Virus record (IMG/VR): IMGVR_UViG_3300020123_000428
Origin: an uncultured virus (IMG/VR IMGVR_UViG_3300020123_000428)
Lineage: Duplodnaviria; Heunggongvirae; Uroviricota; Caudoviricetes
Reading direction: 5' to 3' (one strand)
Length of the DNA stretch: 64,000 nucleotides
Under the pieces are notes generated by a model. The model was not told where the DNA came from, searched no databases, and saw only the letters and a program-made list of their open reading frames with translations. The translations under genes were made by a program, and so were the position numbers. Below, in pieces: positions 13,304-58,929 of the stretch (the first letter of the stretch is position 1; every line of letters begins with the position of its first letter).

Positions 13304-13830
13304 TGATGACTCACCGCTCCATCGGCCGCGCCGCCGGTCGCCGGGTGCTCCCCGGTGGCCATGCGGGCCTGCGCGCCGGTCGGCCGATGGGAGACGTCAT
13401 CAGCGACCTGACGGACTTCTTCACGCTCTCGAGCGGGTCGGTGGCCGCGCTGGCCGCGCAGGTGAACCGGTTCGGGGCGCAGGCGCCCTCCGGCTACCAG
13501 TTCGTGACCACGCCGATCGTTGCCACTGGCAACCTGGACGTGGGCCTGGCCACGGTGGCGCTCGCCATCTACCAGCGGCGCGCCACCGACGCCTACAACC
13601 AGTTCCACGATCAGGGCTCGGCGCAGGCGATCCAGGTCGCCAACCAGGCGCTGGGGGATCCGGTCTCGTACGTCGGCGCCCACATGGCGGACGTCACGCA
13701 GATCATCCAGGCGTTCGGCGACTCGCTGGGCATTCCGCCCGCGGCGGGCGACGCCACGTCCGGTGGCCCCTCCACGCAGACGCTCCTCTGGCTCGCGGGC
13801 CTGGGCCTGGCGATCTGGTGGATGAGGTGA
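13303..13830 (+). CDS. membrane-anchored virion protein
   Basis: RPMGD motif; C-terminal TM. Confidence 0.55.
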   Translation: MMTHRSIGRAAGRRVLPGGHAGLRAGRPMGDVISDLTDFFTLSSGSVAALAAQVNRFGAQAPSGYQFVTTPIVATGNLDVGLATVALAIYQRRATDAYNQFHDQGSAQAIQVANQALGDPVSYVGAHMADVTQIIQAFGDSLGIPPAAGDATSGGPSTQTLLWLAGLGLAIWWMR

Positions 13831-13832
13831 CC

Positions 13833-14438
13833 ATGGCGACCACCACCGCGATCTCGACCACGGATGTCCAGCAGGCGGCGGCCGAGCTGGCGCGCATGCG
13901 GCGCTCGCTGTCGGGCTGGCTCAAGTACCGGACCCTGAACGATCAGGTGCTGGCCGGGACCGCGCCGGTGCGAAAGCCCATGGCGTACGCGCAGCGCGTC
14001 GTGGCGTCGCGGCGGGACATGGCGATCGAGCAAGATCTCGCCACCAAGCTCTCGGCGCTCCTGACCGCGGTGATGCCCGGGACTCCGCTGCCGCCGCCCG
14101 ACGTCTCGTCCAACCCCCAGGCCGCGCTCCAGCTCGCGCAGATCGCGCTCCTGGGCGGGACATCGGTGCCGACGCCCACCGCGACCGGGGGCCTGTTCGC
14201 GGGGCCTCACCCGTGGCTCTGGCCGGCGCTGATCGTCGGCGGGCTGCTCCTGGTCGTGACGACCGCGATCAAGACCGCGGCGGACGTGGCCAAGGATCAG
14301 GAGCAGACCGCGTGCATCGAGGCCGGGGCGTGCACGGACTACGGGTTCTGGCTCAAGGCGGCGGGCGTGGTTACGCTCGCGTGGTTCGCCTGGGAGAAGA
14401 TGGGCGTGGGAGATATGTTCAAGAAGGGGAGGTCGTGA
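13833..14438 (+). CDS. two-TM virion protein
   Basis: two hydrophobic helices in the C-terminal half. Confidence 0.6.
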   Translation: MATTTAISTTDVQQAAAELARMRRSLSGWLKYRTLNDQVLAGTAPVRKPMAYAQRVVASRRDMAIEQDLATKLSALLTAVMPGTPLPPPDVSSNPQAALQLAQIALLGGTSVPTPTATGGLFAGPHPWLWPALIVGGLLLVVTTAIKTAADVAKDQEQTACIEAGACTDYGFWLKAAGVVTLAWFAWEKMGVGDMFKKGRS

Positions 14439-17729: not shown

Positions 17730-19505
17730 ATGCCGCGCATGGCGCATCTCCAGGAGATGGATGACGCCGCCATGGACGGCATGGCGCGGGCGCTGTGGGT
17801 CCACGCGTACATGATCTGGGTGACGGAGGTCGAGCCGGCGCCCGAGATCACATCCGACGACTGGGGGTCTCAGGCGCCGAACACGGCGGTCACCCGGCGC
17901 GTGTCGATGCAGTCCGCCCGCGCGCTGGCGGAGTTGATCCAGCAGGTCAACGACCTGGGTGCGCGTCCGCTGGGCGCGTTGTTCCTGCGGATGAGCGCGC
18001 GCGCCGACGCCAACCGGGCGTACATGTTCGGACGTGAGATCGCCCTCCTGTGCGTGGGCGTGCGCGACCGCGCGGACAGCACGCTGATCCCGCCCGGCCA
18101 CGCGTTCCCGGTGCTGCCCTCGTTTCACATCGAGCTCGACGATGACGGCCAGGAACTCACGTGGGAGGGCGGCGTGGAGGCGACCGAGAACCCGGCGTGG
18201 CCGTCCTCGAGCGTCCAGAGCCTCCTCTTCGAGCGCGGGCGGTACACCGAGCGCCAGGCCCAGCGCTGGGCGCAGGATCACGGCTACCGCCACACCGCGG
18301 TCGACACGACGGGCGACTACATCCACCTGCGGCAGTTCCCGCCCGACGGTCGGCCGTGCCGCAACATCGAGTTCGGCCACGGCGTCCACGCGGTGGTGTG
18401 CGCGACATCGAACCCCGGCACGGGCCCGACCGTGCTGATCTTGGAGGACGATCCGAAGATCCAGTCGGCGCTGAGCCGGTGGGTGAAGAAGATCTTCGGC
18501 GCCAGGAACGTCCACATCGCGGTCGCGGACAACGTCGATGCGGCGGTCGCCGACCTCTCGGCCCACGACGTGAAGCTCATCGTGAGCGACGTCGATGTCA
18601 TCGGCAACCAGAGCGGCCTGGACTTCTTCGAGCACGTCAAGACCCAGCGACCGGACCTGGTCGATCGGTTCATCTTCTTCACCGGCAACTCGGCCGCGCA
18701 GGCGGTGCACTACCGCTACGTCCCCAAGGGCGGCGCGACCTTCGAGGACTTCAAGCGGGTGTACCGGGCCGACCGCGCCGAGCTGGAGGGTGGGCCGGCG
18801 CCGGAGGGCGCATCGCCCGTGGCCCTCCCGCGCACCCGCGCCACGTCCGCGCCGATGACGCTGGCCGAGTTCGCCGAGGCCGTGACGCAGGCGATGCGAC
18901 GCGTGCCCGAGGGCCAGTCCTCCGATGGGCGGTTCCAGGGGCGGGTCGGGGACAATGTGTTCATTGCGGCCGCGTGGCGAGCGCTCCGGGACCCGCGGCT
19001 CTCGGCGATGACGCTCGAGCAGTTCAAGCACCGGCTACTGCAGGCCAACCGTGAGCAACTGCTCCTCCTGAGTCGCGCGGACGCCCAGGGCGACATGGAC
19101 ACGGACGATCTCGTGACGTCCGAGATCGAGGACATGGGCGCGCGGTTCCACTTCATCCAGGATCTGCGGCGCAACGGGGGCATGTCGCTCCGCGAGTTCG
19201 CCCGGCTGGTGAGCGTCGAACTGCCCTACATCCCCGTCGAGCCCGATGTCGATGGCTACCGGGCCCGTGGGCGGTTCGGGCGCAAGGTCTTTATCAGCGC
19301 GCTGTGGCGCCAGATGAAGACGCACCCCCGCTTCGATGGCATGACGCTCCCGCAGTTCCAGCAGCGCCTCGTTCAGGCCCACCGGGAGCGGCTCTTGACC
19401 CTGGCGCGCGCGGACCTCGTGGCGGCGATGGACCCGCGCGAAGTCGCCGAGTCCGAGACCGACGTCGACGGGATCGCCCAGTTTCATTTCGTGGTGGACG
19501 AGTGA
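17730..19505 (+). CDS. multidomain protein with receiver (REC)-like domain and duplicated C-terminal domain
   Basis: VLILEDD...LIVSD...SGLDF...FIFFTG...VPK receiver pattern; two copies of VFI..W..MTL.QF..RL..A.RE.LL.L.RAD. Confidence 0.65.
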   Translation: MPRMAHLQEMDDAAMDGMARALWVHAYMIWVTEVEPAPEITSDDWGSQAPNTAVTRRVSMQSARALAELIQQVNDLGARPLGALFLRMSARADANRAYMFGREIALLCVGVRDRADSTLIPPGHAFPVLPSFHIELDDDGQELTWEGGVEATENPAWPSSSVQSLLFERGRYTERQAQRWAQDHGYRHTAVDTTGDYIHLRQFPPDGRPCRNIEFGHGVHAVVCATSNPGTGPTVLILEDDPKIQSALSRWVKKIFGARNVHIAVADNVDAAVADLSAHDVKLIVSDVDVIGNQSGLDFFEHVKTQRPDLVDRFIFFTGNSAAQAVHYRYVPKGGATFEDFKRVYRADRAELEGGPAPEGASPVALPRTRATSAPMTLAEFAEAVTQAMRRVPEGQSSDGRFQGRVGDNVFIAAAWRALRDPRLSAMTLEQFKHRLLQANREQLLLLSRADAQGDMDTDDLVTSEIEDMGARFHFIQDLRRNGGMSLREFARLVSVELPYIPVEPDVDGYRARGRFGRKVFISALWRQMKTHPRFDGMTLPQFQQRLVQAHRERLLTLARADLVAAMDPREVAESETDVDGIAQFHFVVDE

Positions 19506-20126: not shown

Positions 20127-23100
20127 GCAACCTCTTCATCAACCTGCCCACGCCGATCGGCAACGGGGTCGGCGCGTCGGTCGACATGTCGGCGACCGGC
20201 GCGACCAAGACCATCGTCGTGGTCGGCACGGCGCTGGTCACCCTGAACATCGAGATCAACAACGACGCCGCGCAGGGCGGCAGTTGGACCTCGGCAGCCA
20301 CGATCCAGAACACCGGCACCGTCACCATCAACGTGGCCTGCCGGTGGATGCGCGTGCGGGCGTCCGGCTACAACACCAGCGTCGGCGGGACCAGCTCGGT
20401 CAACGTCGGCGCGACCGATGACGGGACCGTGTTCGCGTCGCTGCCGGTGTCGGTCGGCAACGGCGTGGGCGCCGCGGTCGATGTCAGCGCGAACCTGGGG
20501 CTGTTCAAGACCGTCCAGGTCGGCGGGACGTTCGGGGGGACGACCCTGATCGAGGTGTCCGAGGATGGCACGACCGAATGGGCGCAGCCGTTCTCGTTCC
20601 AGAACCCGGGCGCGCAGTCAGCGGTGATCGTGACCCGGTTCATGCGCGTGCGCCGGGTCGGCGTTCCGGTGCTGAACCCCGGCCTGCCGGTGGTCAACGT
20701 CGGGTTCGCGTCGACCGCGGAGGGCAGCACCAAGCCGTCGCTGGCGATCGCGGGCGGCACCCAGACCGCCAGCTCGGGTACCGTCCTCTTTTCCAACACC
20801 AACGGCGTGACCTTCGGGCTCTTGGGCTCGGTGATGACGGCCTCGGTGCAGACCGCGGGCGGCACGGCCACCGGCGTCGGGGTCAGCGCGGGCACCGAGC
20901 TGGCCACCACCGGCGTGGTGGTCCTCTCGAACGCCAACGGCGTCTCGTTCGGGATGCACAACGCCACGGTGACGGCCTCGTACACGCAGTCGACCGCGCC
21001 GGCGGCCATCGCCGCCGGATCGCAGACGGCAGGTTCCGGGACGGTGGTGCTCGCCAACTCGAACGGCGTGTCCTTCGGCATGTCGGGCTCCTCGCAGATC
21101 ACGGCCAGCTATAGCCAGTCGACATCGCCCGCCGCCATCGCGGCCGGATCGCAGACCGCCGGTTCCGGCACCGTGGTGCTGGCCAACAGCAACGGTGTCT
21201 TCTTCGGAATGTCCGGGTCGTCACAGATCACCGCGAGCTACACGCAATCGACAGCGCCGGCCGCGATCAGCGCCGGCACCGCCTCCGTCGGCGCGGGCAC
21301 CGTCGTCCTCTCGAACTCCAACGGGGTGTCCTTCGGGCTGTCGGGCTCGACCGTCACCGCCTCCGTGGAGGCGCAGTCGGTCGCGCCGGCCGCGATCGCG
21401 GCCGGATCGCAGACCGGTAGTTCCGGCACCATCCTGTTCTCGAACGCCAACGGCGTGGTGTTCGGCATGAACGCCTCATCCCAGGTCACGGCGAGCTACA
21501 CCCAGTCGACAGCGCCGGCCGCGATCAGCGCCGGGACCGCGTCCGTCGGCGCGGGCACGGTGGTGTTCTTGAACAGCAACGGTGTCTCGTTCGGCCTGTC
21601 CGGCTCCACGGTCACGGCGTCCGCGGCCGCGCAGTCGGTGGCGCCAGGCGCCATCGCGGCGGGCACACAGACCGCCAACTCCGGTACGGTCGTCTTCTCG
21701 AACTCGAACGGCGTCTCCTTCGGGATGGCCGGATCGTCGCAGATCACCGCCAGCTATACGCAGTCGACGGCGCCCGCCGCGATCAGCGCCGGGACTGCCT
21801 CGGTCGGCGCCGGCACGGTCGTGCTGTCGAACTCGAACGGGGTCTCGTTCGGGCTCTCGGGATCGACGGTGACAGCCTCGGTCGGCGCGCAGTCGACCGC
21901 GCCCGGCGGGATCGCCGCCGGATCGCAGACCGCGACATCCGGCACCGTGGTGTTCTCGAACAGCAACGGCGTGTCCTTCGGGCTGTCGGGGTCGACGGTC
22001 ACCGCCTCGATCGCGGCCGGCGTGTCCGCGCCCGCGGTGGCGGCCGGAACGCAGACCGCCACGGGTGGCACGGTGGTGTTCTCAAACTCGAACGGGGTCT
22101 CGTTCGGGATGGCCGGATCGTCGCAGGTCACGGCGTCGTATACGCAGTCCACGGCGCCCGCGGCCATCAGCGCCGGCACGGCCTCGGTTGGGGCCGGCAC
22201 CGTCGTGTTCTCGAACTCGAACGGGGTCTCGTTCGGCCTCTCTGGGTCGACGCTCACGGCGAGCTACACGCAGTCGACCGCGCCCGCCGCGATCAGTGCC
22301 GGGACCGCGTCCGTTGGTGCGGGGACGGTCGTATTCTCCAACTCGAACAGCGTCTCGTTCGGTCTATCCGGATCGACCGTCACCGCCAGCATCAACGCTG
22401 GCCAGCCCTCGGTCGGGTGGCTGTTCGGAGATGGCACCGATGGCGCGGCCACGATGGATGGCGCGGCGACGGTCGCCGGCTGCACTCTCGCCGCGAGCGT
22501 GTACACCGCGACGCGGCCGGTATTCTTCACCCAGATCACCGGCAGCGCCAACATCACCCTCAAGCCCGACGGGTATCCGATCTACTGCTCGGGTACCTGC
22601 GCGGGACCTGGCTCGGGCACCTTCACGATCGACAGCTCCGGCAACCCCGGACAGTCCGGCGCCGCTGGCGGCGCTGGTGGCACCGCGACCTGGACGACCC
22701 CCCGTTACCTGCCTGCGGGGGTGACCGGCGGCGCCGGTGGAGGTGCCGGCCAGAACGGCACCGCGGCCGGGGCATCGCCGCGGGAGTTCTCGGGCGCGGC
22801 GGCCTCGGGCGGCACCACCGCGGGCGGCGTGGCCGGCCCCGGTGGCAACGGCGGCACGGGGCGCGGCGGTGGTGGTGGCGGGTCTGGCGGCGTGACCGGC
22901 GGCGCCGGCAACCCGGGCGGCGCGGGCGGCGGCATCACGGCCAAGTCGCCAGTCAGTGGCGATCTGCACCAGGCCGAGCAGGCCACCACCTTCCGCGACA
23001 ACACCACGGTCGCCTGGAGCTCGGGATCCGGTGGCGGTGGCGGCGGCGGCGCCGGTGGTGGCGGTGGATCCGGCGGGGGCGGCGGGTCCGCGGGGTCGCC

Positions 23101-25677: not shown

Positions 25678-26297
25678 TGTCGGAGTTCCTGCACGTCCTC
25701 ATGGTCGGGTTCGCCATCATCGGCGCCGGGATGGTCCCCGTGGTGATCACCATCGCGGTGGCGCGGTACCGCGCGCGGCGCCGGGAGGATCGGCTCTCGT
25801 TCCTGGGCGTCCCGACCGGGTCACTGACCGGCTGGGACGCGACGCTCGAGTACGGGGACCACGAGGGCGGCATCTTCGATCGCGACACGCTAGATGCGTC
25901 GGTCGCACTGGAGCACAACCGGCGTGATCACGAGGAGTTCATGCGAGAGATCCAGATGGCGGAGGAGCGCCGCCACCGCGCGGAACAGCGCGCGCGCCGT
26001 GAGAAGCGGTGGGCGTGGCTCCCGTGGTCGAAGTACCGTCGCCGCAGGGCCGCCGAGTTGCGCTGGCAGGTCTCTCAGCTGGAAGATGAACTGAAGCTCG
26101 CGCGCTGGCGGGCCGCGCAGTACCGTCGACTTGCGATGGATCATGTCGACTGGATGGGCAGTGGTCTACTGGAGCAGATCAAGAATATCGACGATACCAT
26201 CGCGGTGGTGTTCGAGACTCCACGCGCGCACGCAACGGACCCGAGTCCCGCCGATGACGATATCCCGGCCAACGCGTACGAGGATCTCCTGCAATGA
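25677..26297 (+). CDS. membrane-anchored hypothetical protein
   Basis: N-terminal TM; AGGAG RBS; TGATG coupling. Confidence 0.5.
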   Translation: MSEFLHVLMVGFAIIGAGMVPVVITIAVARYRARRREDRLSFLGVPTGSLTGWDATLEYGDHEGGIFDRDTLDASVALEHNRRDHEEFMREIQMAEERRHRAEQRARREKRWAWLPWSKYRRRRAAELRWQVSQLEDELKLARWRAAQYRRLAMDHVDWMGSGLLEQIKNIDDTIAVVFETPRAHATDPSPADDDIPANAYEDLLQ

Positions 26298-27157
26298 GCG
26301 ACCTCGGGACGCGCCCGGCCGACCCGGGACACGTGAGCGACCTCGGGACGCGCCCGGCCGACCCGGGACACGTGCTGCGCGTCGAGCCGGACCCTGCCGC
26401 GCAGGGGCATACTCCACAGATCAGCCCGGAGATTCCGGGACCCGCCGATGATGCGTGTGGCGTGGCTGGTTCCGTTGAGGTCACGATCGCCAAGCCGCCG
26501 GCGACCCGCCGGCTCGACCTTGCCAGTGGCCAGAACGTCCGCGTGGGATTCGAAGGCGTCGACATCTGGCCGGGCGCGCAGCACGTCGTGAACCTCCAGC
26601 AGTACCCCTGGCCGTTCGAGGACGAGAGCGTGCTCGAGGTCAACTGCAGCCACTACATCGAGCACATCCCGATGGAGATGATCGTCGGTCGCCGCTGCAG
26701 GTGCTGCGGCGGCCACGGCATTGTGCGCTTCGAGGGGTCGGCGGAGCGATGCTCACACTGCCAAGATGGGGTGCAGGCATGGCCTGCCAAGGACGCCCTC
26801 TTCGCATTCTTCGACGAGTGCTACCGCATCCTGGTGCCCGACGGCTGGCTCCACGTAGTGGTGCCGGCGCACCGCTCGGACCGGGCGTTCCAGGACCCGA
26901 CGCACCGGAGGTTCATCACCGCGCAGACCTTCGCGTACATGAACCAGGAGTGGCGGCGGATCAACCGGCTCGACCACTACAACGTCGACTGCAACTTCGT
27001 GGGCAACGCCAACCCGGTGGTGGACCAGACACTGACCCTGCGGCACCCCGACGTCGCCCAGCAGATGATCCAGCGCAACTGGAACACCGTGATCGACTGG
27101 ACCGCCAGCATGCAGAAGAAGCCCCGCATGACGGTCAAGGTGTTCACGTCGCCATGA
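26294..27157 (+). CDS. class I SAM-dependent methyltransferase-like protein with Zn-finger insertion
   Basis: LDLASG, WPFEDESV, SHYIEH, ECYRILVPDG, DPTH; true start may be downstream of 26441. Confidence 0.7.
   Translation: MSDLGTRPADPGHVSDLGTRPADPGHVLRVEPDPAAQGHTPQISPEIPGPADDACGVAGSVEVTIAKPPATRRLDLASGQNVRVGFEGVDIWPGAQHVVNLQQYPWPFEDESVLEVNCSHYIEHIPMEMIVGRRCRCCGGHGIVRFEGSAERCSHCQDGVQAWPAKDALFAFFDECYRILVPDGWLHVVVPAHRSDRAFQDPTHRRFITAQTFAYMNQEWRRINRLDHYNVDCNFVGNANPVVDQTLTLRHPDVAQQMIQRNWNTVIDWTASMQKKPRMTVKVFTSP
26295..26441 (+). repeat. 39-bp tandem duplication and three GCCCGG-N5-CCGGGAC hairpins
   Basis: 26295-26333 equals 26334-26372; hairpins at 26313-26330, 26352-26369, 26424-26441. Confidence 0.7.
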
Positions 27158-31371: not shown

Positions 31372-31697
31372 CCGCCAACTCCCGGACCGATTTCCACATC
31401 ACCCTGTGTCGACCGATGCGCATCATGCTCCAGGACACGAGCGTGGAGTTCCTCGAGTTCGACGCCGTCCGTAACTACGACTGCGACGACATCCAGATGC
31501 GGATGGCCTTCCTTGAGGTGTCCCGCCTCTACCTGAGGGTCTGGCCGACTCCGGCACCGACACCCGCATACAGGCCTGCGCCTACGCCCACGCCAGACAA
31601 GCCAGCACGCCCCGTCAAGATGGCGGTTCGGCTGCTCATTCCGGTCGATAACATCTCTGGCATGGTCGAGCGTGCGCCGGATCTCAAGAAGGCGTGA
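31368..31697 (+). CDS. hypothetical protein
   Basis: AGGAG RBS; ATGA coupling. Confidence 0.45.
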   Translation: MTANSRTDFHITLCRPMRIMLQDTSVEFLEFDAVRNYDCDDIQMRMAFLEVSRLYLRVWPTPAPTPAYRPAPTPTPDKPARPVKMAVRLLIPVDNISGMVERAPDLKKA

Positions 31698-31735
31698 CAT
31701 CGTGGCCGGGTCTCGCCGTTCGTAACCCCAAGGGG

Positions 31736-32557
31736 ATGACTCCAATGCCGAGGACGCAAGCATACAAGGTATTCACGCACGATCTCCGACCCCCGGTACG
31801 TGGTGGGGATCCGGTCTGGGCGGGCGGCGTACCGCACATGCTACCGCGCACGGAGGTGGACACGTCCGACGAGGAATGCGCGGCAGGCTGGAACGCGTGC
31901 GCGATGGCGGAGGACGCGCTGCGCATCGCGGGGCTGTGGCCGGATGGCCGCCCAAGCCGGCTGTTTCGCGTCGAGACCAACGAGCCGGTGTTCGTGCGCG
32001 GCGACAAGGTGCGCGCCGCCACGTGGACCATCGTCGAGGAGTCGGCGGTGGACGACGCGGTCCACGCGCTGTCCCGGAAATGGTTCAGCGCCGAGTTTGC
32101 CGACGAGATGGCGCTCGAGCAACTGACATGGCGAGCCGCGCTCACGCGACCGGCGCGTGACCCGGCGCTCGTCGAGCAACACCTCGCACGAGCGCTCGAA
32201 GCGCGCGGTCTGCCGTGGACGTTGCGGCGCTTCGACACCGCCAGGGACGCCTGGGACGCCTGGGCCGCCTGGGCCGCCAGGGCCGCCAGGGACGCCAGGG
32301 ACGCCTGGGCCGCCAGGGCCGCCAGGGACGCCAGGGACGCCTGGGACGCCTGGGACGCCTGGGCCGCCTGGGCCGCCTGGGACGCCTGGGACGCCTTGAC
32401 CCACTACTTCGCTAGCGCGAAGAAGTGGGTCAGCGGACCGCGTGCCCAGTACACCATCGGTATCCGCGACGCCTATGCCCACGGCCTTGCCATCGCTATC
32501 CCCACAGCCCACAACCAGATCGGCTGGGCTCTCGACAACCGAACGGATCACCGATGA
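31736..32557 (+). CDS. phage protein with A(W/R)(D/A) tripeptide repeats
   Basis: ORF with internal 9-bp tandem array. Confidence 0.6.
   Translation: MTPMPRTQAYKVFTHDLRPPVRGGDPVWAGGVPHMLPRTEVDTSDEECAAGWNACAMAEDALRIAGLWPDGRPSRLFRVETNEPVFVRGDKVRAATWTIVEESAVDDAVHALSRKWFSAEFADEMALEQLTWRAALTRPARDPALVEQHLARALEARGLPWTLRRFDTARDAWDAWAAWAARAARDARDAWAARAARDARDAWDAWDAWAAWAAWDAWDALTHYFASAKKWVSGPRAQYTIGIRDAYAHGLAIAIPTAHNQIGWALDNRTDHR
32240..32395 (+). repeat. 9-bp tandem repeat GCC(A/T)GGG(A/C)C, ~17 units
   Basis: directly visible. Confidence 0.9.
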
Positions 32558-38711: not shown

Positions 38712-39070
38712 GCTCGCCCCCGGGCGAGACACGATGACAAGGCCTTCACCTCCAAAGGAGAGCCGCATGCTGACCCGACATGTCGACCGCCCTCGCCTCC
38801 GCCCCTGCATCGCCTGCATCCTCGTCGCGCTGCTCTGCACGGCCGTCGCGGGTGCGATGTGTGCGTCGATCGACTACGTAGCGCGGATGGCGGTGACCGA
38901 CTATGGTCAGTCGCTGGGGACCATCAACACGTGCACGCTGCCGGTGGTCGACAAGGAATAGCTCCGGATCCGGAGACCGTCGCGCGCCCCGAGCGATCGC
39001 GGACAGCAGGCAACGGAGACAACTGCACGAACGACTCAGGGGCTGGCTCGGTGCCCACGCAAACCGACGA
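38712..39070 (+). CRISPR. dispersed hairpin repeats
   Basis: GCTCGCCCCCGGGCGAGAC 38712-38730; GCTCCGGATCCGGAGAC 38961-38977; half repeat CGGAGAC 39014-39020. Confidence 0.45.
38734..38961 (+). CDS. small membrane protein
   Basis: hydrophobic segment; start may be 38767. Confidence 0.35.
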   Translation: MTRPSPPKESRMLTRHVDRPRLRPCIACILVALLCTAVAGAMCASIDYVARMAVTDYGQSLGTINTCTLPVVDKE

Positions 39071-39097
39071 CCGAATCATGAACCGAAGGAGATCGAG

Positions 39098-41002
39098 ATG
39101 GGTAAGAAGACCGAACGTATCGCCGAGCTCGAGGAGACACTCGCATCCTCCCGGATGCTGATCTTGAGCATCGCGCAGGATCTCAACATCGCCGCGCTGC
39201 TGCCGCATGACTGGCGTCAGCACCCGTTCCAGGTGGCGCGGCTGTTTACTCGGGCGATCGGGATCCGGCCAGCGCCGGGCCCCGTCGCTCCGACGAGCTC
39301 GGCGGACGCCGAGACCGAAGCCGATCCTGTGTCGCGCTCGGCGCCGGCCGAGACGGGTACGACTAGACCGCGCTCGGCGTTCCCCGAGACGCCTGAGCTC
39401 CCGTCGTTCGACGCCATGGTCGACGACCAGGTGGCGAAGATCGAGCGAGCCAAGGCGCCGGTCGGCGCGAACGCCGTGGTCATCTCCGACCCAGGCGCCG
39501 AAGTACCGCTGGAGATGATGCATACGCTGCGCAACGTCATCGATGCGGTCGCCCAGGAGCTCGGCATCGAGCACGAAGGGCAGGCCCCGTTCGACGTGCT
39601 GTACGCCTGCTACAACGAGATCCGGCGGATAAAGAACCCCGACGGTACGATCGATGCCGACACCGGAGATGAGGCGCTGTCCAAGGGGGATTCCCTCGCC
39701 GAGGCGGTGGCGCACGGCCAGCGCACCGAGAACACGCTGCGGGAGCAGCTCGAGGCGTCGCGCACCCTGGTGAACCGGATCGCCGGCGCGCTGCAGATCA
39801 GCACGTGGTCACCGGATGGCGCAGAACTGCTTGAGCGCGTCCAGGCGTGGTCGACGGCACGCACGATCCTCCGGCGGTGGCACCGCTCGATCACGATCGA
39901 GGTCTCCGCCGATAGCAACGTGCGGGTCCCGGCGAGGCACGTACGGATCAGCCTGGCCGAGTTGATCGATCGGATGGATGGGCCCGGCTCGGCGGACCGA
40001 GACTTCAGGACGATGAAGACCGAGACCACCACAGCAACGTCCGCGACGAGCTCGGCGCCGGCGGAGACGGCAGCCCAAACAGCGACGACGTCCACGGACA
40101 AGGCGTGCCAGGTCTGCGCGCGTTTGGAGGCGCACCCGGACCACCGGGATCGCGGGATGACCAACTATCACCAGTTCGTGTCGAGCTCGGCGCCGGCCGA
40201 GACTGTTGCAGCGCCCGAGACAACCACAGCGGCAGCATCGCCCAGCGTCCTGACGGCGTGCCGGGTGTGCGGCATGCCCGAGGGGTTCTTCGATCACCAT
40301 GGGCTGGGGCCGATCGCCCACCCGTTCGTCCCCGGCGGCCAGTTCGCACCGGTGACCACGACGCGCTCGGCGCCGGCCGAGACGGTTGACACTCCGTCGG
40401 CGGCTCCAGGGATGCCGGTCGGCCTGCTCCTCGATGAGGAGAAGATCCAGCTTCTGCAGTGGCTGTCCGACCACTCCACGATGATCGGGGGGGCCAGCGG
40501 GCCGCGCGTCGTGCTTGACGACGTGATCCGGGCAGCCAAGATCGCGCTCGCCAGCGCCAAGCACCCGGACGACCCCGAGGAGCGGATGAAGCGGATCCGC
40601 GAGCGCATGAGCCGCCTGAAGCACGGACCGAAGGGCACCGGGCAACCTGGCTCGTGCGAGCCCGACTGCCTGAAGTGCGAGCTCGACCGCGAACTGAAAG
40701 CGCTGCAACTGGGACGCGCGGCGCCGATCCAGTGCATTCGCTTCACCGTGAGCCTCATCCGCGAGGCCGAACTCCCCGGCCAGTGGGTGTCCATCTTCCA
40801 TGAGCTCAACCTCAAGTCGGGCGGCGTGACGCCGCAACGCGCCCTCCTGGCAGGGGCTGCCGCCGTGCGGATGCTGGTGGACCACCGTATGACCCAGGAC
40901 AAGATGTTGGCCCACGAGGTGTTCGCGGCGCTGAAGGCCCAGGGCGGGTTCCGGGGCTTGTCGGACCGGATGATCCTGGCCGACGACAAGGAGCAGGGCT
41001 GA
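39098..41002 (+). CDS. large mosaic protein with SAPAET-type repeats
   Basis: AAGGAG RBS; TGATG-coupled to the Cas12m-like gene; CxxC...H motifs. Confidence 0.65.
   Translation: MGKKTERIAELEETLASSRMLILSIAQDLNIAALLPHDWRQHPFQVARLFTRAIGIRPAPGPVAPTSSADAETEADPVSRSAPAETGTTRPRSAFPETPELPSFDAMVDDQVAKIERAKAPVGANAVVISDPGAEVPLEMMHTLRNVIDAVAQELGIEHEGQAPFDVLYACYNEIRRIKNPDGTIDADTGDEALSKGDSLAEAVAHGQRTENTLREQLEASRTLVNRIAGALQISTWSPDGAELLERVQAWSTARTILRRWHRSITIEVSADSNVRVPARHVRISLAELIDRMDGPGSADRDFRTMKTETTTATSATSSAPAETAAQTATTSTDKACQVCARLEAHPDHRDRGMTNYHQFVSSSAPAETVAAPETTTAAASPSVLTACRVCGMPEGFFDHHGLGPIAHPFVPGGQFAPVTTTRSAPAETVDTPSAAPGMPVGLLLDEEKIQLLQWLSDHSTMIGGASGPRVVLDDVIRAAKIALASAKHPDDPEERMKRIRERMSRLKHGPKGTGQPGSCEPDCLKCELDRELKALQLGRAAPIQCIRFTVSLIREAELPGQWVSIFHELNLKSGGVTPQRALLAGAAAVRMLVDHRMTQDKMLAHEVFAALKAQGGFRGLSDRMILADDKEQG
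39297..39390 (+). CRISPR. intragenic three-repeat mini-array
   Basis: 19-nt GCTCGG-N6-CCGAGAC at 39297, 39336, 39372; spacers 20 and 17 nt. Confidence 0.55.
39987..40383 (+). CRISPR. intragenic hairpin repeats
   Basis: repeats at 39987-40003, 40050-40068, 40185-40203, 40365-40383; half repeats at 40020 and 40215. Confidence 0.5.
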
Positions 41003-42927
41003 TGTCGGTCCGCGTCTACGAGTACGGTCTGCGCGCGCCCACCTTCAACGCCGATCTGGTGGACGAGCAGATCTTCAAGGCCCACCGGTACCGCAACCTC
41101 CTGACCGAGATCGAGCAAGCGCGGCGCGTGGCCGTGCGGCAGATCATGAGCGCGCACCCCGACATGGTCCCGCTCGATGAGGAACTCCGGGTCCTGAACG
41201 AGCAGATCGAGGCCGCGCGGCAGGTCATCATGAGCGCTCGCAAGGCGACCCGGTCCCGCTCGGAGACCGCCGAGCAGCGCGCCCAGGTCCGCGAGCTCAC
41301 CGCCAAGGCCAAGGGGTTGCGGGAGCAGATCAAGGGCATCCGCAAGGCGGTGGCGGAGGACACCGCGATCCGCGAGGCGCTCGATCGCGCGGACGAGGAG
41401 TCGGAGGAGAAGATCCGCCAAGCCCGCGCGGTGTGTGGCGTGTACTGGGGGACCTACCTCCTGCAGGAGGCGGCGGCGCGGCAGGCTCGCCAGGAGCGCA
41501 TGCCGCCCAAGTTCCAGCGCTACCGCGGCGAGGGCCGGGTGTCGGTGCAGCTCCAGAAGGGCCTCGAGCTGGCGGACCTCTGGGGGACCGACACCCAGAT
41601 CCGCATCGAGCCGGTGGCCGAGGCCGCCCATGATCCGCTCACCCGCCGCGGCGATCGCCGGCGGCTCGCCCGCACCAACGTCATGATCCGGGTCGGCTCG
41701 GACAAGGGCAAGCCGATCTGGGCCACGTGGCCGATGATCTACCATCGCCCGCTGCCCAAGGGCGCGGTCCTGAAGGTCGCCACGGTCAGCCGACGTCGGC
41801 GCAACTGCTCGACCTGGGACTGGCGCCTCCACGTCACCGTGGACACCAGCGCGTGCGAGGCGCGCCCGGTGCCGGCAGGCGGCGTGGTCGCCCTGAACCT
41901 GGGCTTCTGCATGCGTCCCGGTGGCGGCGTCCGTGCCGGCTACATGGTCGGCAGTGATGGCGAGGAGCGGGAGATCTTGGTCAACAAGTCCGACGCCTAC
42001 CGCGGTCGGGACCTCTCCGTGGAGGAGCAAGCCCGGCTGGGCGAGTGGATCCCCAACGGCTTCGCCAAGGCGGAGAGCATCCAGTCGATCCGCGACAAGA
42101 ACCTCGACCGGTTGCGCGCCGCCCTCCTGGCGTGGCGCGGCCGCGCCGAGCTCGACATCGGGGCGATCACCGAGATGATCCAGGAGTTCCGGCGGGGCCC
42201 CCGCGACAACCCCCGCACCTGGAACTGGGGGGACCCGCCCCCGCCGGTGATCGCGCCCGAGATCCCGGAGTGGCTCATGACGACGACGCAGGCCATGCAC
42301 GCCTGGCGATCCCCCGACCGCTTCCGGTCCCTGTACCGCGCCTGGGGCCGCCAGCGCTTCGAGGGCGACGGGGTGGGCTACGAGTGCCTGGGTGCGTGGG
42401 TCGAGCGGGACGAGCACCTGGAGCACTACGAGGCCGGTCTGCGGCGCTCCGCACTCCTGGACCGCCGCGAGTCCTACCGCATCCTGGCCGCCCAGATGGC
42501 CCGCACCTACGCCACCCTGGTCATCGACGACACCGATCTGCGCGCCTTCCAGCGCAGCCCCTCCCCCGAGAGTGGGGATGTCGAGTTCAACGCCGTGAAG
42601 CGGAACCAGCGCCTCGCCGCCGGCAGCGAGCTACGAGGCGTCCTCATGAACGCCTTCGGGCCCGGCCGGACGGTCAAGCTCTCGGCCAAGGATGTCACCC
42701 GCCGCTGCTACCACTGCGGCACCATCAACCAGTGGGAGCGATCCACCGCCGACCGCCTCCACACCTGCAGCGAGTGCAAGGTCCAGTGGGACCAGGACGC
42801 CAACGCCTGCCGGAACCTCCTGCGAGAGCACGAGCACACCAAGGACGCACCCGCAGCGCCGGCCCCGGACAAGAAGCCCAGCCGCTCTGAGCGCCTCCTG
42901 GAGGCCAAGCGCCGGCGGGCCGCGTGA
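41002..42927 (+). CDS. cas12m: Cas12m-like (type V-M) / TnpB-superfamily RNA-guided DNA-binding protein with non-canonical RuvC
   Basis: 641 aa; long N-terminal coiled coil; YWGTY, RYRGEGRVSVQLQ, YHRPLP, VALNLGF (RuvC-I, N for D), WRSPDRF..L..AW, LVIDDTDL (RuvC-II, D for E), CYHC/CSEC Zn finger, WDQDANA (RuvC-III); blocks match my recollection of MmCas12m. Confidence 0.8.
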   Translation: MSVRVYEYGLRAPTFNADLVDEQIFKAHRYRNLLTEIEQARRVAVRQIMSAHPDMVPLDEELRVLNEQIEAARQVIMSARKATRSRSETAEQRAQVRELTAKAKGLREQIKGIRKAVAEDTAIREALDRADEESEEKIRQARAVCGVYWGTYLLQEAAARQARQERMPPKFQRYRGEGRVSVQLQKGLELADLWGTDTQIRIEPVAEAAHDPLTRRGDRRRLARTNVMIRVGSDKGKPIWATWPMIYHRPLPKGAVLKVATVSRRRRNCSTWDWRLHVTVDTSACEARPVPAGGVVALNLGFCMRPGGGVRAGYMVGSDGEEREILVNKSDAYRGRDLSVEEQARLGEWIPNGFAKAESIQSIRDKNLDRLRAALLAWRGRAELDIGAITEMIQEFRRGPRDNPRTWNWGDPPPPVIAPEIPEWLMTTTQAMHAWRSPDRFRSLYRAWGRQRFEGDGVGYECLGAWVERDEHLEHYEAGLRRSALLDRRESYRILAAQMARTYATLVIDDTDLRAFQRSPSPESGDVEFNAVKRNQRLAAGSELRGVLMNAFGPGRTVKLSAKDVTRRCYHCGTINQWERSTADRLHTCSECKVQWDQDANACRNLLREHEHTKDAPAAPAPDKKPSRSERLLEAKRRRAA

Positions 42928-43319
42928 CGCCGCGCGAGCGATGGGATGCGGCGGTGGCGCTCCAGCACCAGACGGTAGCGCAGATCGCCAGACTTCCGCT
43001 GGACGAGGCCGGCGACAGTTCGTGCACGGATCTGGTCAACCGCGCCACCTACGAGCTGATGGAGGCGTACCGGGAGTTGAGGTACGAATACGAGTCGCAC
43101 GCTTGGCGTGGGTCAGAACCACATCCGTTGTACGACTTGCTCATGCCAGAGTGGTACGCGGCGTACAATCTGCACCGTGAGGCGATGTTCCAGCGGGAAC
43201 GCGTGGGCACGCTCTACCGAGCCACTCTGGCTATCGATGAGCAGTGCCTCGCAATGGCGCGCGTGTATTCGGCGATCCCGTCGCACCTGAAGGTGGACTC
43301 GACCGGCGTCGAGGCATGA
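42924..43319 (+). CDS. hypothetical protein
   Basis: GTGA-coupled to the cas12m-like gene. Confidence 0.5.
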   Translation: MTPRERWDAAVALQHQTVAQIARLPLDEAGDSSCTDLVNRATYELMEAYRELRYEYESHAWRGSEPHPLYDLLMPEWYAAYNLHREAMFQRERVGTLYRATLAIDEQCLAMARVYSAIPSHLKVDSTGVEA

Positions 43320-43366
43320 TGAACTCGGACAACATTCCGAGGCCGGCTCGATGTGCTCTGGGAATG

Positions 43367-43506
43367 GCTCGTCGCCGACGAGACCAGCTGTCGTCCCTGG
43401 TTCCGCTCGGGGATGCCCGAGACGAGTGGGAAGTTGTGGTCAGGATCCGCTCGGGGATCGCCGAGGACAGGTCACAGCCGAGACGCGTTCATCAACTGCC
43501 CGAGAC
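43367..43506 (+). CRISPR. degenerate mini-array downstream of cas12m-like gene
   Basis: hairpins 43367-43384, 43405-43423, 43449-43468; half repeats CCGAGAC at 43478 and 43500; spacers 20 and 25 nt. Confidence 0.6.
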
Positions 43507-43531: not shown

Positions 43532-43903
43532 ATGATGAATCCCCGCGATCAAGAGTTGTTCGACGGCCGCCCGAAGATCACCAAGCCGTGCCCTCATTGT
43601 TCCGGGCATGGCCGGGTCACAGTCGGCTATGCGCTCATCCACTTCGAGCGTGCGTCGATGCCTGAGCCACTGGACAGGATCCCGCCCGACGCGATCTGCG
43701 CCCTGGTCGTCGGCTCCTCCGGCATCTACGAGTGCTGCAAGGAGGCGGTCGAGATCGCGGCTCGAGCGCAACGTCCCGTTGCCTTCGAGTTCTGCAGTCA
43801 GATCGTCATCGCCAGAGCAGGGGATGATCCGGTCCGGCTCGCACGCGAGTGGTGGATGATCGAGTACAAGGAGACACCAGAGGCCAGCGCCGCGCGACGA
43901 TGA
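43532..43903 (+). CDS. hypothetical protein (CPHCSGHG)
   Basis: GAGG RBS; flanked by mini-arrays. Confidence 0.5.
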   Translation: MMNPRDQELFDGRPKITKPCPHCSGHGRVTVGYALIHFERASMPEPLDRIPPDAICALVVGSSGIYECCKEAVEIAARAQRPVAFEFCSQIVIARAGDDPVRLAREWWMIEYKETPEASAARR

Positions 43904-43911
43904 CACAAGGT

Positions 43912-44030
43912 GGTCCAGCTCGGTGGGTTCGACCGAGACGCGCTCTCGTCAACCATCGGGTTCCGCTCGGGGAATCCCGAGACGCCAGAGCAAGGGATGT
44001 CCGGTCCAGCCCAGTGGCAGAACCTGGGAC
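43912..44030 (+). CRISPR. three-repeat mini-array
   Basis: GGTYCM + hairpin + AC at 43912-43939, 43959-43983, 44003-44030; two 19-nt spacers. Confidence 0.65.
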
Positions 44031-45090: not shown

Positions 45091-45450
45091 CTACTCGTGG
45101 TAGCGGACGTAGATCTCGAGCGCCGGCGTCGCGATGGTGAAGCCGTTGCTCAGGGTCGCCCGGAAGTCGGCATCGGTGGTGCCGGTCTTGGCGACGCCGA
45201 CCTGCTCGAAGTCCGCCACGACCGCAGCGGGGTTGGCGGTCACCTGGACGGCGTCGGCCAGGTGGACCGTGTTCGCCCCGTAGGTGTAGTTCTGGGGGTT
45301 GAACGTCGCCGGGAGCACGACATCGGGCGTCGCGCCGCTGTGGCCGGTGAGCGCGATCGTGCCGCTGGCACCCGCCGCCAGCGAGAGTCCGGTGATGCGC
45401 ACGAGACGGTCGGAGATCTGCAGGATGGTCGCGGTGCCGGTGAATGCCAT
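45091..45450 (-). CDS. beta-rich protein, paralogue 2
   Basis: similar to 44572-44934. Confidence 0.65.
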   Translation of the reverse strand: MAFTGTATILQISDRLVRITGLSLAAGASGTIALTGHSGATPDVVLPATFNPQNYTYGANTVHLADAVQVTANPAAVVADFEQVGVAKTGTTDADFRATLSNGFTIATPALEIYVRYHE

Positions 45451-45499: not shown

Positions 45500-45594
45500 G
45501 TCTCGGGTGGTGGTTAGTTCCGTTGGCGTCTCGGAGCACACGACGCCGTCGTCTCGGTTCCGTCCCATCGGCCGTAGTCTCGGCGTCCCCGAGC
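45500..45594 (-). CRISPR. one full hairpin followed by three CCGAGAC half-repeats
   Basis: GTCTCGG on + strand at 45500, 45528, 45551, 45577; spacers 16-21 nt. Confidence 0.55.
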
Positions 45595-45766: not shown

Positions 45767-45940
45767 ATGAAGCGCAAGCTGATCCTCAAGTCCCAGACCC
45801 TGCGCGTGCTCTCGTCGCGTGATCTCGCCACCGCGGTCGCTGGCGAGGCCGCCATCAGCGCGGCATGGTGCCAGACCCAGCGCAATTGTCCGCCGCCGGC
45901 CAGCGATGGCTTCAGCTGCGGCGGCAACACGCACGACTGA
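45767..45940 (+). CDS. RiPP/lanthipeptide-precursor-like peptide
   Basis: AGGAG RBS; MKRKLILKSQTLRVLSSRDLATAVAG leader; Cys/Ser/Thr core; 57 aa, below ORF-track cutoff. Confidence 0.55.
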   Translation: MKRKLILKSQTLRVLSSRDLATAVAGEAAISAAWCQTQRNCPPPASDGFSCGGNTHD

Positions 45941-45960: not shown

Positions 45961-46011
45961 GTCTCCGGGTTCGGCCTCGGAGCGCGGTCTGTCGTCTCGG
46001 ACGCGCCGAGC
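45961..46011 (-). CRISPR. two hairpin repeats
   Basis: 45961-45983 and 45994-46011. Confidence 0.4.
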
Positions 46012-47237: not shown

Positions 47238-47406
47238 GTCTCGGTTCACCCGAGCCGGTTCTCAACCAATACCGGCATCGATAGCGTCTCGGTTCAGCCG
47301 AGCCGATCTCGACAAGAGTCCCGGCGATCCGGCGATCCGGGCCAGTCTCAACCCAGCGCGCTTGTCTCGGACGCAATCCCGAGCCCATCTCGGAAAACGC
47401 CGAGCG
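47238..47406 (-). CRISPR. four-to-five-repeat mini-array
   Basis: hairpins 47238-47256, 47286-47304, 47318-47343, 47364-47385 and degenerate 47387-47406; the four main units are each preceded by GAGA. Confidence 0.6.
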
Positions 47407-48507: not shown

Positions 48508-48662
48508 GTCCCGGCCTCCCCGGGCAGGTCCCCTCGTAGTTCATGAGCCGTCTCGGTCGCCCGAGCGTCGCTAGTTCCCCGTCCCCGCTTGGGGGGCTCA
48601 TCTTGAGCGCCGCCAGCACACGTCTCGCAGGCAGGGCACACCCGTCTCGCCGCTTCGCGAGC
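48508..48662 (-). CRISPR. mini-array with covarying hairpins
   Basis: hairpins 48508-48525, 48550-48566, 48581-48597, 48644-48662; half repeat 48622-48627; spacers 14-24 nt. Confidence 0.6.
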
Positions 48663-58875: not shown

Positions 58876-58917
58876 GTCTCGTGGATCGCCAGGCAGCAAC
58901 GTCTCGTTCCACCGAGC
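58876..58917 (-). CRISPR. hairpin repeat + 19-nt spacer + half repeat
   Basis: GCTCG-N6-CGAGAC 58901-58917; CGAGAC 58876-58881. Confidence 0.45.
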
Positions 58918-58929
58918 CGGCCTTGCGAC

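Follow-up and report, generated by a model that had tools for sequence, protein, structure and literature searches.

The DNA considered here is a 64-kb window, the whole stretch of 64,000 nucleotides taken from the uncultured virus IMGVR_UViG_3300020123_000428 (IMG/VR; Caudoviricetes). A short palindromic hairpin recurs in it within and between the genes around cas12m, the gene of a CRISPR (short palindromic repeats that are clustered and regularly interspaced) effector, and seven copies lie in frame inside the gene directly upstream of cas12m, designated ORF A (open reading frame A; 39098-41002, plus strand, 634 aa). ORF A starts with MGKKTERIAELEE behind a GAAGGAG ribosome site, and the start at 39098 fits the N-termini of its homologues (MGKKTE...). 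Its stop codon overlaps the start of cas12m in the sequence TGATG at 41000-41004, and cas12m is furnished with a ribosome site of its own, AAGGAG.

The product of cas12m obtains from Pfam only a sub-threshold match, to the Cas12f1-like TNB domain. As a single sequence it matches Cas12m structures at E 4e-58, and a profile of 25 effector homologues compared with solved structures matches 23vw_A at E 3e-125 and Cas12m2 (8hio/8hhl) at E 1e-58. Pairwise alignments place the RuvC residues at N299 (VALNLGF), D (VIDDTDL) and D (WDQDAN), with N299 aligned to D of 23vw and to H of Cas12m2. By these comparisons the effector is a Cas12m of type V-M, an N-D-D variant of the RuvC site, and of the DNA-binding, non-cutting kind. 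Cas12m orthologues with D-E-D, H-D-D and N-D-D sites are all reported to bind double-stranded DNA without cutting it, dependent on a protospacer-adjacent motif (PAM), and to be guided by a single short CRISPR RNA (crRNA); the pre-crRNA is cleaved within the repeat in a reaction that requires Cas12m and Mg and is independent of RuvC (Bigelyte 2024, PMC11013384).

The content of the window is phage-like (DUF5131, Dam, M23 peptidase, integrase). More than 120 homologues of the effector were found, many on contigs of about 80 kb, and the related viral records include three complete genomes of 78.8-86.4 kb with terminal repeats. A scan of viral_contigs with the single effector protein revealed no relative, whereas an alignment-based scan did. 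Among the 60 distinct window ORFs scanned against Pfam, neither Cas1, Cas2 or Cas4 nor another adaptation gene was present, and the only transposase-related match among the scanned ORFs was the TnpB-like domain of Cas12m itself. Cas12m loci are generally devoid of adaptation genes, according to a preprint on phage Cas12m (10.64898/2026.09.14.751636). Tandem Repeats Finder found no canonical array of 36-nt repeats with unique spacers in the 64-kb window. Rfam at gathering thresholds identified no family across the window, tRNA genes were not found in it, and megablast of 38900-43400 against a phage DNA database gave no match.

The original prediction, made from the letters alone, had placed seven in-frame hairpins in ORF A, the first three (cluster 1) at periods of 39 and 36 nt, so that 20 and 17 nt lie in between, and had noticed unusually A/T-ending codons nearby. 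Motif search and translation bear out the hairpins, their peptides and their spacing (Table 1), and the codon bias is real: the GC content at third codon positions (GC3) is 33/51 (0.65) in the 24 nt behind the hairpins and 401/454 (0.88) in the remaining ORF (Fisher p 4e-5). The strict motif GCTCGGN{2,12}CCGAGAC occurs 15 times in the window, compared with a mean of 0.19 in shuffled sequence and a maximum of 2 in any shuffle. Six of these matches lie within ORF A; the seventh ORF A copy, at 40050, reads CGGAGAC in its 3' arm and was found with mismatches allowed, a search with up to two mismatches yielding 10 matches against 1.62 expected. Since the loop of hairpin 4 is 2 nt shorter than that of the others, its 3' arm is read in another phase. 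When nine hairpins were folded singly, eight of them (all but one of the seven ORF A copies, and both intergenic ones) reached -7.5 to -13.8 kcal/mol. Soil contigs from two independent studies match 39178-39391, 39214-39364 and 39938-40188 without a difference; the ORF A repeats are therefore not an assembly artefact. These contigs came from four DNA runs and cover the window partially, so that they are informative for the covered parts; in the contig pieces that cover hairpins, the repeats showed neither indels nor copy-number variants.

The nine strict copies outside ORF A are all situated in non-coding gaps, three on the plus strand downstream of cas12m and six on the minus strand between minus-strand genes at 45.6-48.6 kb. 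All 15 strict copies fall within 39.3-48.6 kb, that is, around cas12m. The stems of the element covary between copies (CTCGGC/GCCGAG, CTCGGG/CCCGAG, CCCGG/CCGGG), and a variant with a compensated stem, GCCCGG...CCGGGAC, is found five times in the window (0.36 expected), three times in frame at the N-terminus of ORF 26294-27157. The first two hairpins of that ORF form a perfect 39-nt tandem duplication. The three copies at 26.3 kb and the seven of ORF A sit inside ORFs that carry a coding GC3 signature.

The copies are directed with transcription. Orientation was counted by means of a crude GC3-based gene caller. Of the 80 rows obtained from the window and 15 related loci, 23 lie in coding sequence in sense and 1 in antisense, 45 are intergenic in sense and 5 intergenic in antisense, and 6 fall between divergent or convergent genes. 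Four rows of the related locus L007 that were counted as coding actually belong to the 5' leader of cas12m. All 21 window rows are sense, two of these rows being nested. The complete relative G001 (86,334 bp) contains 36 copies, as against none in the reversed control; 27 of the copies are concentrated around cas12m, from 23 to 37 kb. Directly upstream of cas12m, L007, L037, L046 and L036 have hairpin arrays; in L033 and L044 such arrays precede the ORF A homologue.

The hairpin is a nucleotide-level element, independent of the reading frame, and not a peptide repeat. A single palindromic family occurs both between genes and in frame, in two genes of the window, and it is read in several phases in L035, whose Cas12m is 58% identical to that of the window. 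The cas12m frame of L035 holds four hairpins in three phases; one 18-nt hairpin is translated there as TSPAAPGP and as DQPGGAGT. (The same frame, 951-2618, contains one in-frame stop within the conserved YLLQEAAAD motif and may be a pseudogene or, on this short low-coverage contig, reflect a sequencing error.) Of the 15 closest Cas12m proteins (P0002-P0016), 11 contain hairpin-type peptides, between 2 and 8 times each, and none occurs in the other four or in the Cas12m of the window; for these proteins the hairpins are deduced from the peptides, with a DNA basis for L035 and L036. Three of the four SAPAET copies of ORF A use exactly the set of codons that pairs, for which local codon usage gives a per-copy probability of 0.04. 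A Cys/His knuckle (ACxVC...DH...HxFV) is present in two diverged copies (39% identical, E 5e-6), which are bracketed by hairpins 40050, 40185 and 40365. Over three aligned units 27 of the 28 columns of the hairpin region are invariant, compared with a mean column identity of 57% over the alignment, and outside this region the two full units are far more diverged. Homologues that keep the SAPAET peptides and lose the pairing, which the original prediction had regarded as the sign of a purely protein-level repeat, were not encountered: in five of six homologues the aligned linker is free of the peptide, and L044 has hairpin-type peptides of its own.

The relation of the hairpin to Cas12m was derived from orthologue loci elsewhere, in which cas12m is followed by ordinary arrays whose repeats measure 36 nt and recur about every 72 nt. 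Several of these canonical repeats end in the motif of the window, as in L001 (...GCTCGGCGCCCTCGAAGCCGAGAC) and L054 (...GCTCGGGGGCGTAGAACCCGAGAC). One repeat from each of 25 arrays was aligned and the pairs of an H-type pseudoknot were counted. Stem II is 93% paired, with five of six pairs changed on both sides, and stem I is 82% paired, with all four pairs covarying; the pseudoknot cells are paired in 88.8% overall, whereas shuffles reached 62.2% and sliding the partner columns left no more than 44%. The terminal GAC is invariant over the 25 repeats. The scaffold reported for Cas12m2 has C(-22)-C(-17) paired with G(-8)-G(-3) and G(-23) with A(-2) (Omura 2023, PMC10442227). This geometry and the array alignment together identify the window module, G-CTCGGC-loop-GCCGAG-A-C, with stem II, the closing G.A pair and the terminal C. 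Judged from sequence, the module of 17-19 nt, G-CUCGG(N)-loop-(N)CCGAG-AC, is hence the 3' helix of the Cas12m CRISPR repeat.

Table 1. Hairpins, half repeats and effector gene in the 64-kb window
Feature	Position	Strand	Sequence, peptide and remarks
Three in-frame hairpins, CCCGG/CCGGG stem	26313-26330, 26352-26369, 26424-26441	+	ORF 26294-27157; RPADPGH twice, SPEIPGP
Leader hairpin, same shape	38961-38977	+	GCTCCGGATCCGGAGAC; 5' leader of ORF A, directly after upstream stop codon; from a relaxed search (41 matches, about 11 expected by chance)
Hairpin 1	39297-39315	+	GCTCGGCGGACGCCGAGAC; SADAET; -11.4 kcal/mol
Hairpin 2	39336-39354	+	GCTCGGCGCCGGCCGAGAC; SAPAET; -13.8 kcal/mol
Hairpin 3	39372-39390	+	GCTCGGCGTTCCCCGAGAC; SAFPET; 5-bp stem
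Hairpin 4	39987-40003	+	GCTCGGCGGACCGAGAC; SADRD; 2 nt shorter
Half repeat CCGAGAC	40020-40026	+	KTET
Hairpin 5	40050-40068	+	GCTCGGCGCCGGCGGAGAC; SAPAET; one pair broken
Hairpin 6	40185-40203	+	SAPAET
Half repeat CCGAGAC	40215-40221	+	APET
Hairpin 7	40365-40383	+	SAPAET
cas12m, type V-M effector	41002-42927	+	641 aa; RuvC positions N-D-D
Intergenic hairpin, covarying stem CTCGGG/CCCGAG	43405-43423	+	Opens a small degenerate array
Intergenic hairpin variant ending GAGGAC	43449-43468	+	Followed by half repeats at 43478 and 43500
Intergenic hairpin	43918-43939	+	Strict motif search
Intergenic hairpin	43965-43983	+	Following sequence resembles 43811-43838
Hairpin with three half repeats (45551, 45528, 45500)	45577-45594	-	Upstream of minus-strand gene starting near 45450
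Intergenic hairpin	45994-46011	-	Adjoins small plus-strand ORF
Intergenic block	47238-47405	-	Hairpins 47387-47405 (ends GAGAT), 47364-47384, 47286-47303, 47238-47255
Intergenic hairpin	48550-48566	-	Strict motif search
Solitary unit keeping canonical 5' half	58901-58929	-	GTCGCAAGGCC...CGAGAC; covariance model 17.3 bits, E 0.14, marginal

It is proposed that Cas12m binds the dispersed hairpins on phage transcripts and probably trims the RNA 5' of them, and that the hairpins act mainly as cis sites by which the amount of Cas12m is coupled to the fate of the messages. A probability of about 0.5 is assigned to this explanation. Binding is proposed because the module is carried in sense on phage messages and has the shape of that part of the guide which Cas12m holds. 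In a lineage of soil phages of about 80 kb the module would have left the array and been scattered in sense between the genes around cas12m. It would also have entered, or expanded within, stretches that encode linkers, namely in ORF A, in ORF 26294-27157 and, in sister phages, in cas12m, where it would simply be translated. Cas12m would then bind the hairpins on the phage's own transcripts and probably cut the RNA 5' of each, as it does with pre-crRNA. The message of ORF A could in this way be severed at up to seven places, and the cas12m cistron, with its own ribosome site, would be left on a piece of RNA headed by a bound handle. The result would be feedback between the level of Cas12m and the ORF A-cas12m message, with similar control in the neighboring gaps, and RNAs composed of the handle and 17-20 nt might arise as a by-product. 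The hairpins end in GAC whereas the PAMs reported for Cas12m are T- or C-rich (Bigelyte 2024, PMC11013384), from which it follows that the phage's own DNA beside a hairpin is probably not bound.

A wider and more tentative claim, which we regard as possible rather than likely, is that Cas12m works in these phages without an array, that the handle has become a dispersed cis element on phage mRNAs, even within ORFs including cas12m, and that the effector is a hairpin-specific regulator or processor of those mRNAs. A bolder variant holds that a handle inserted beside a gene segment would give rise to a guide against sister phages that do not carry the insertion, the insertion itself removing the PAM of the carrier.

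Several observations weigh against the proposal that the hairpins are cis sites bound by Cas12m. The ORF A copies are devoid of the 5' half of the repeat (GTxGCAAxGCC) and of stem I of the pseudoknot, for which loops of only 3-6 nt leave no room. A covariance model of the canonical repeat, applied to the window with filters off, yielded no significant match, the best being the solitary unit at 58901-58929 (E 0.14). The ORF A copies score 8.9 bits (39331-39354, E 6.9) and 8.3 bits (40184-40203, E 9) in this model, which misses them because the 5' half and stem I are absent; for the same reasons, binding of the ORF A hairpins by Cas12m extrapolates beyond the canonical repeat. Copy 40050 folds at -7.4 kcal/mol, no better than its shuffles (z 0.11); its stem contains a mismatch in which a pair was lost through the synonymous change GCC to GCG, and it must be considered a degenerate copy. 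Folded together with its context (116 nt), cluster 1 does not surpass shuffled sequence (z -1.07), and the predicted minimum-energy fold joins arms of different copies. The codon phase at the start is identical in all seven ORF A hairpins, and part of their number is due to protein-level tandem duplication of the Cys/His knuckle unit. The four antisense copies of L007 constitute one 460-nt non-coding block that is antisense to both flanking genes. A search of the window with the 17-nt spacers, allowing three mismatches, and with 10-nt seeds gave matches at chance level only, apart from one local near-duplicate (43984 against 43811). Finally, the contig extends to as much as 81.6 kb, of which the window covers 64 kb, and a canonical array could lie in the other 17 kb or so.

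In the L007 block (13500-13960) four plus-strand hairpins and a 33-nt tandem repeat lie between two minus-strand genes; it is possibly a small transcription unit of its own.

According to one alternative, the hairpins form a working mini-CRISPR: each, together with the 17-25 nt behind it, would be cut out as a guide to foreign DNA, such as host genes or competing phages, and the coding function would be secondary. In length, the cluster 1 gaps (20 and 17 nt) agree with the heteroduplex of 17 bp that Cas12m2 is reported to form (Omura 2023, PMC10442227), and the atypical codon usage in the 24 nt behind the hairpins is that expected of imported sequence. Forms with longer loops and gaps of 24-25 nt, in L046 and L033, may be regarded as intermediate. 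In addition, the sequence after hairpin 43965 (43984-44011) resembles 43811-43838, which is part of the upstream gene 43535-43903: over the first 17 nt there are two mismatches and, by eye, about 27 of 28 positions agree with one gap. This likeness could represent a partial self-target or a local duplication. Arguing against guides are the chance-level matches of the spacers in the window, the absence of an exact match in viral_contigs for two spacers of 21 and 20 nt (0 each), and the missing stem I. The gaps between hairpins in L007 often measure 6-16 nt, too short for guides, and in the array upstream of its cas12m three of four gaps are 13-14 nt long and near-identical to each other, which is not a property of spacers. 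The lack of adaptation genes among the scanned ORFs also speaks against a working array, although Cas12m loci generally do without them. The short L007 gaps favor the hairpin itself as the working unit, and with the absence of stem I, of a target in the window and of a match for the two spacers they make guide production the less likely main purpose. On balance, a mini-CRISPR appears unlikely.

Alternatively, the copies may be decayed or selfish debris, pieces of former repeats that were multiplied by slippage or palindrome recombination and are tolerated, functionless, in gaps and disordered linkers. Many half repeats and degenerate copies, such as 40050, are what this explanation predicts; the insertions fall into unstructured segments of low model confidence, homologues do without the hairpins, and palindromic repeats in genes are known from repetitive extragenic palindromes (REPs; Di Nocera 2013, PMC3733652). 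The number of copies in sister phages is uneven: G001 has 36, G003 2 and G002 none, and one of the latter two (L010) possesses an ordinary array instead. Functionless debris would not be expected to favor the sense orientation so strongly, nor to keep stem, flanking G and terminal AC while loops and neighboring sequence drift. Moreover, the copies are concentrated around cas12m and not spread over the genome, and their placement just upstream of cas12m recurs in four relatives. We therefore do not consider debris a likely explanation.

An RNA or DNA element that is independent of Cas12m, for example the site of another RNA-binding protein or RNase, an mRNA stabilizer or a recombination site, whose likeness to the repeat reflects common descent only, is improbable. 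Gaps between co-directional genes are the usual place of processing or stabilizing hairpins, and ORF A, a conserved partner gene beside cas12m in seven distinct loci, is a candidate reader. Yet the conserved unpaired G and the AC match the Cas12m scaffold precisely, and the hairpins of the window have no T-run and consequently are not intrinsic terminators. That the element was seen only in genomes retrieved through Cas12m also speaks against independence, a weak point because of the sampling bias that this entails. A purely protein-level linker repeat that is palindromic by accident of codon choice can be dismissed as very improbable: the copies do share one phase, their Ser/Ala/Pro/Glu/Thr-rich peptides resemble flexible linkers and three of them belong to the protein-level duplication, but non-coding DNA and the opposite strand contain the same motif, L035 reads it in other phases, its codon identity is beyond expectation, and the peptide is missing from the aligned linker in five of six homologues, the sixth, L044, having hairpin-type peptides of its own.

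The original prediction had gone further and suggested that the units of ORF A are embedded repeat-spacer units, that the mRNA doubles as pre-crRNA and that its processing might result in auto-regulation. The second suggestion is partly supported, in that the hairpins are nucleotide-level elements related to the repeat of the effector; they are not full repeats and are not special to ORF A, and no spacer target was found for them in the window or, with the two spacers tried, in viral_contigs. Embedding in ORF A is a partial description, as the element is scattered across some 10 kb on either strand and enters a second gene. Auto-regulation is mechanically possible, to judge by the position of hairpins on the transcript that carries the effector gene.

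ORF A belongs to no Pfam or PHROG family, and a word-index homology search returned only ORF A itself among proteins of 348-1110 aa; its homologues were found by tblastn in related loci. The N-terminal 290 aa or so are homologous to proteins of about 340-370 aa encoded directly upstream of cas12m in sister phages, in seven distinct loci (L008, on the same contig as L038, L009, L033, L034, L035, L036 and L044). The family, represented in the window by 39098-39970, may be a Cas12m-associated partner gene. When ORF A is aligned with its homologues, cluster 1 proves to be inserted into a variable linker that precedes the conserved motif TFDDxVD, and cluster 2 falls within a lineage-specific block after residue 290 or so. 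An AlphaFold2 model of ORF A has a mean predicted local distance difference test score (pLDDT) of 49.5, too poor for a fold search, and the hairpin segments are unstructured in it; a look-up of residues 1-295 in the ESM Atlas returned nothing above the chance range.

Some further features accompany the hairpins. On the minus strand (58882-58929), the unit at 58901-58929 is followed by 19 nt and a CGAGAC half repeat. It is situated in the gap that separates a stop codon from the following minus-strand gene, and the 19 nt are matched nowhere else in the window. A 57-aa ORF on the plus strand (45767-45940) with a Cys-rich tail (MKRKLILKSQ...CGGNTHD) lies within the otherwise minus-strand block of genes. 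Elsewhere in the window, a 129-nt tandem repeat of about 10.7 copies (20921-22387), with higher-order periods of 258 and 387, gives rise to a highly repetitive Ser/Gly/Ala-rich protein region in the minus-strand ORFs at 20371-22563. At 32239-32396, inside ORF 31694-32554, 17.6 copies of the 9-nt unit CGCCTGGGA follow one another with 92% matches, and the 590-aa ORF 17730-19502 contains a response-regulator receiver domain (Pfam PF00072, E 2e-7).

The Rickettsia palindromic elements are palindromes in genes that occur both between genes and in frame and are far longer than the module of the window. Intragenic REPs are likewise short palindromes that are found between genes and in frame, where they add peptides (Di Nocera 2013, PMC3733652). 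The hairpins described here differ from both in being strand-oriented with transcription, clustered at one gene and derived from a CRISPR repeat; they are not spread genome-wide, and no transposase of the RAYT (REP-associated tyrosine transposase) type was seen in the ORFs scanned.

Compared with canonical type V-M loci (Omura 2023, PMC10442227; Bigelyte 2024, PMC11013384), the window shares the effector family, stem II with the G.A pair and the terminal C, and the absence of visible adaptation genes. It differs in having no 36-nt array, in modules without 5' half and stem I, in their dispersal over about 10 kb and both strands, and in the in-frame copies. The crRNA-like RNAs, among them CreR (Shmakov 2023, PMC10120712; Liu 2023, 10.1101/2023.03.10.532045), are also standalone degenerate repeat units near cas genes for which feedback of the effector on Cas expression was proposed. 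As described there, however, they are intergenic and have a spacer partly complementary to a promoter, whereas many copies in the window lie in ORFs, no promoter match was found in the window and action in cis on RNA is proposed; the search of Shmakov (2023, PMC10120712) is described as having set aside matches that overlap ORFs. The Racr RNA anti-CRISPRs (PMC10651486) and phage crRNA-like RNAs (10.1101/2024.10.29.618823) are phage-borne solitary repeat mimics as well. Those, in the accounts given of them, mimic the repeats of the host and disarm its Cas proteins, while here the phage itself encodes the matching effector. A preprint of September 2026 (10.64898/2026.09.14.751636) claims the first phage-encoded Cas12m, which, as in the window, is accompanied by neither cas1, cas2 nor cas4 and for which no protospacers were reported; unlike the effector of the window, it is of the D-E-D type, and the locus as presented in that preprint has one regular eight-spacer array and nothing dispersed or in frame. 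Full-text literature searches uncovered no description of in-frame CRISPR-handle hairpins that are translated inside genes.

CRISPR repeats have been treated as non-coding. Here the core of a Cas12 guide scaffold is translated in frame, in sister phages even within the effector, and it is multiplied around the effector gene with no ordinary array seen in the window. The finding extends phage-encoded Cas12m to a whole family of soil phages of about 80 kb. If Cas12m binds these sites, they would define a minimal handle of 19 nt, a matter of practical interest since work is under way to develop Cas12m into a compact platform for CRISPR interference and base editing. They would also represent a case in which a natural DNA-binding CRISPR effector is wired, via RNA handles, to its own message and those of its neighbors.

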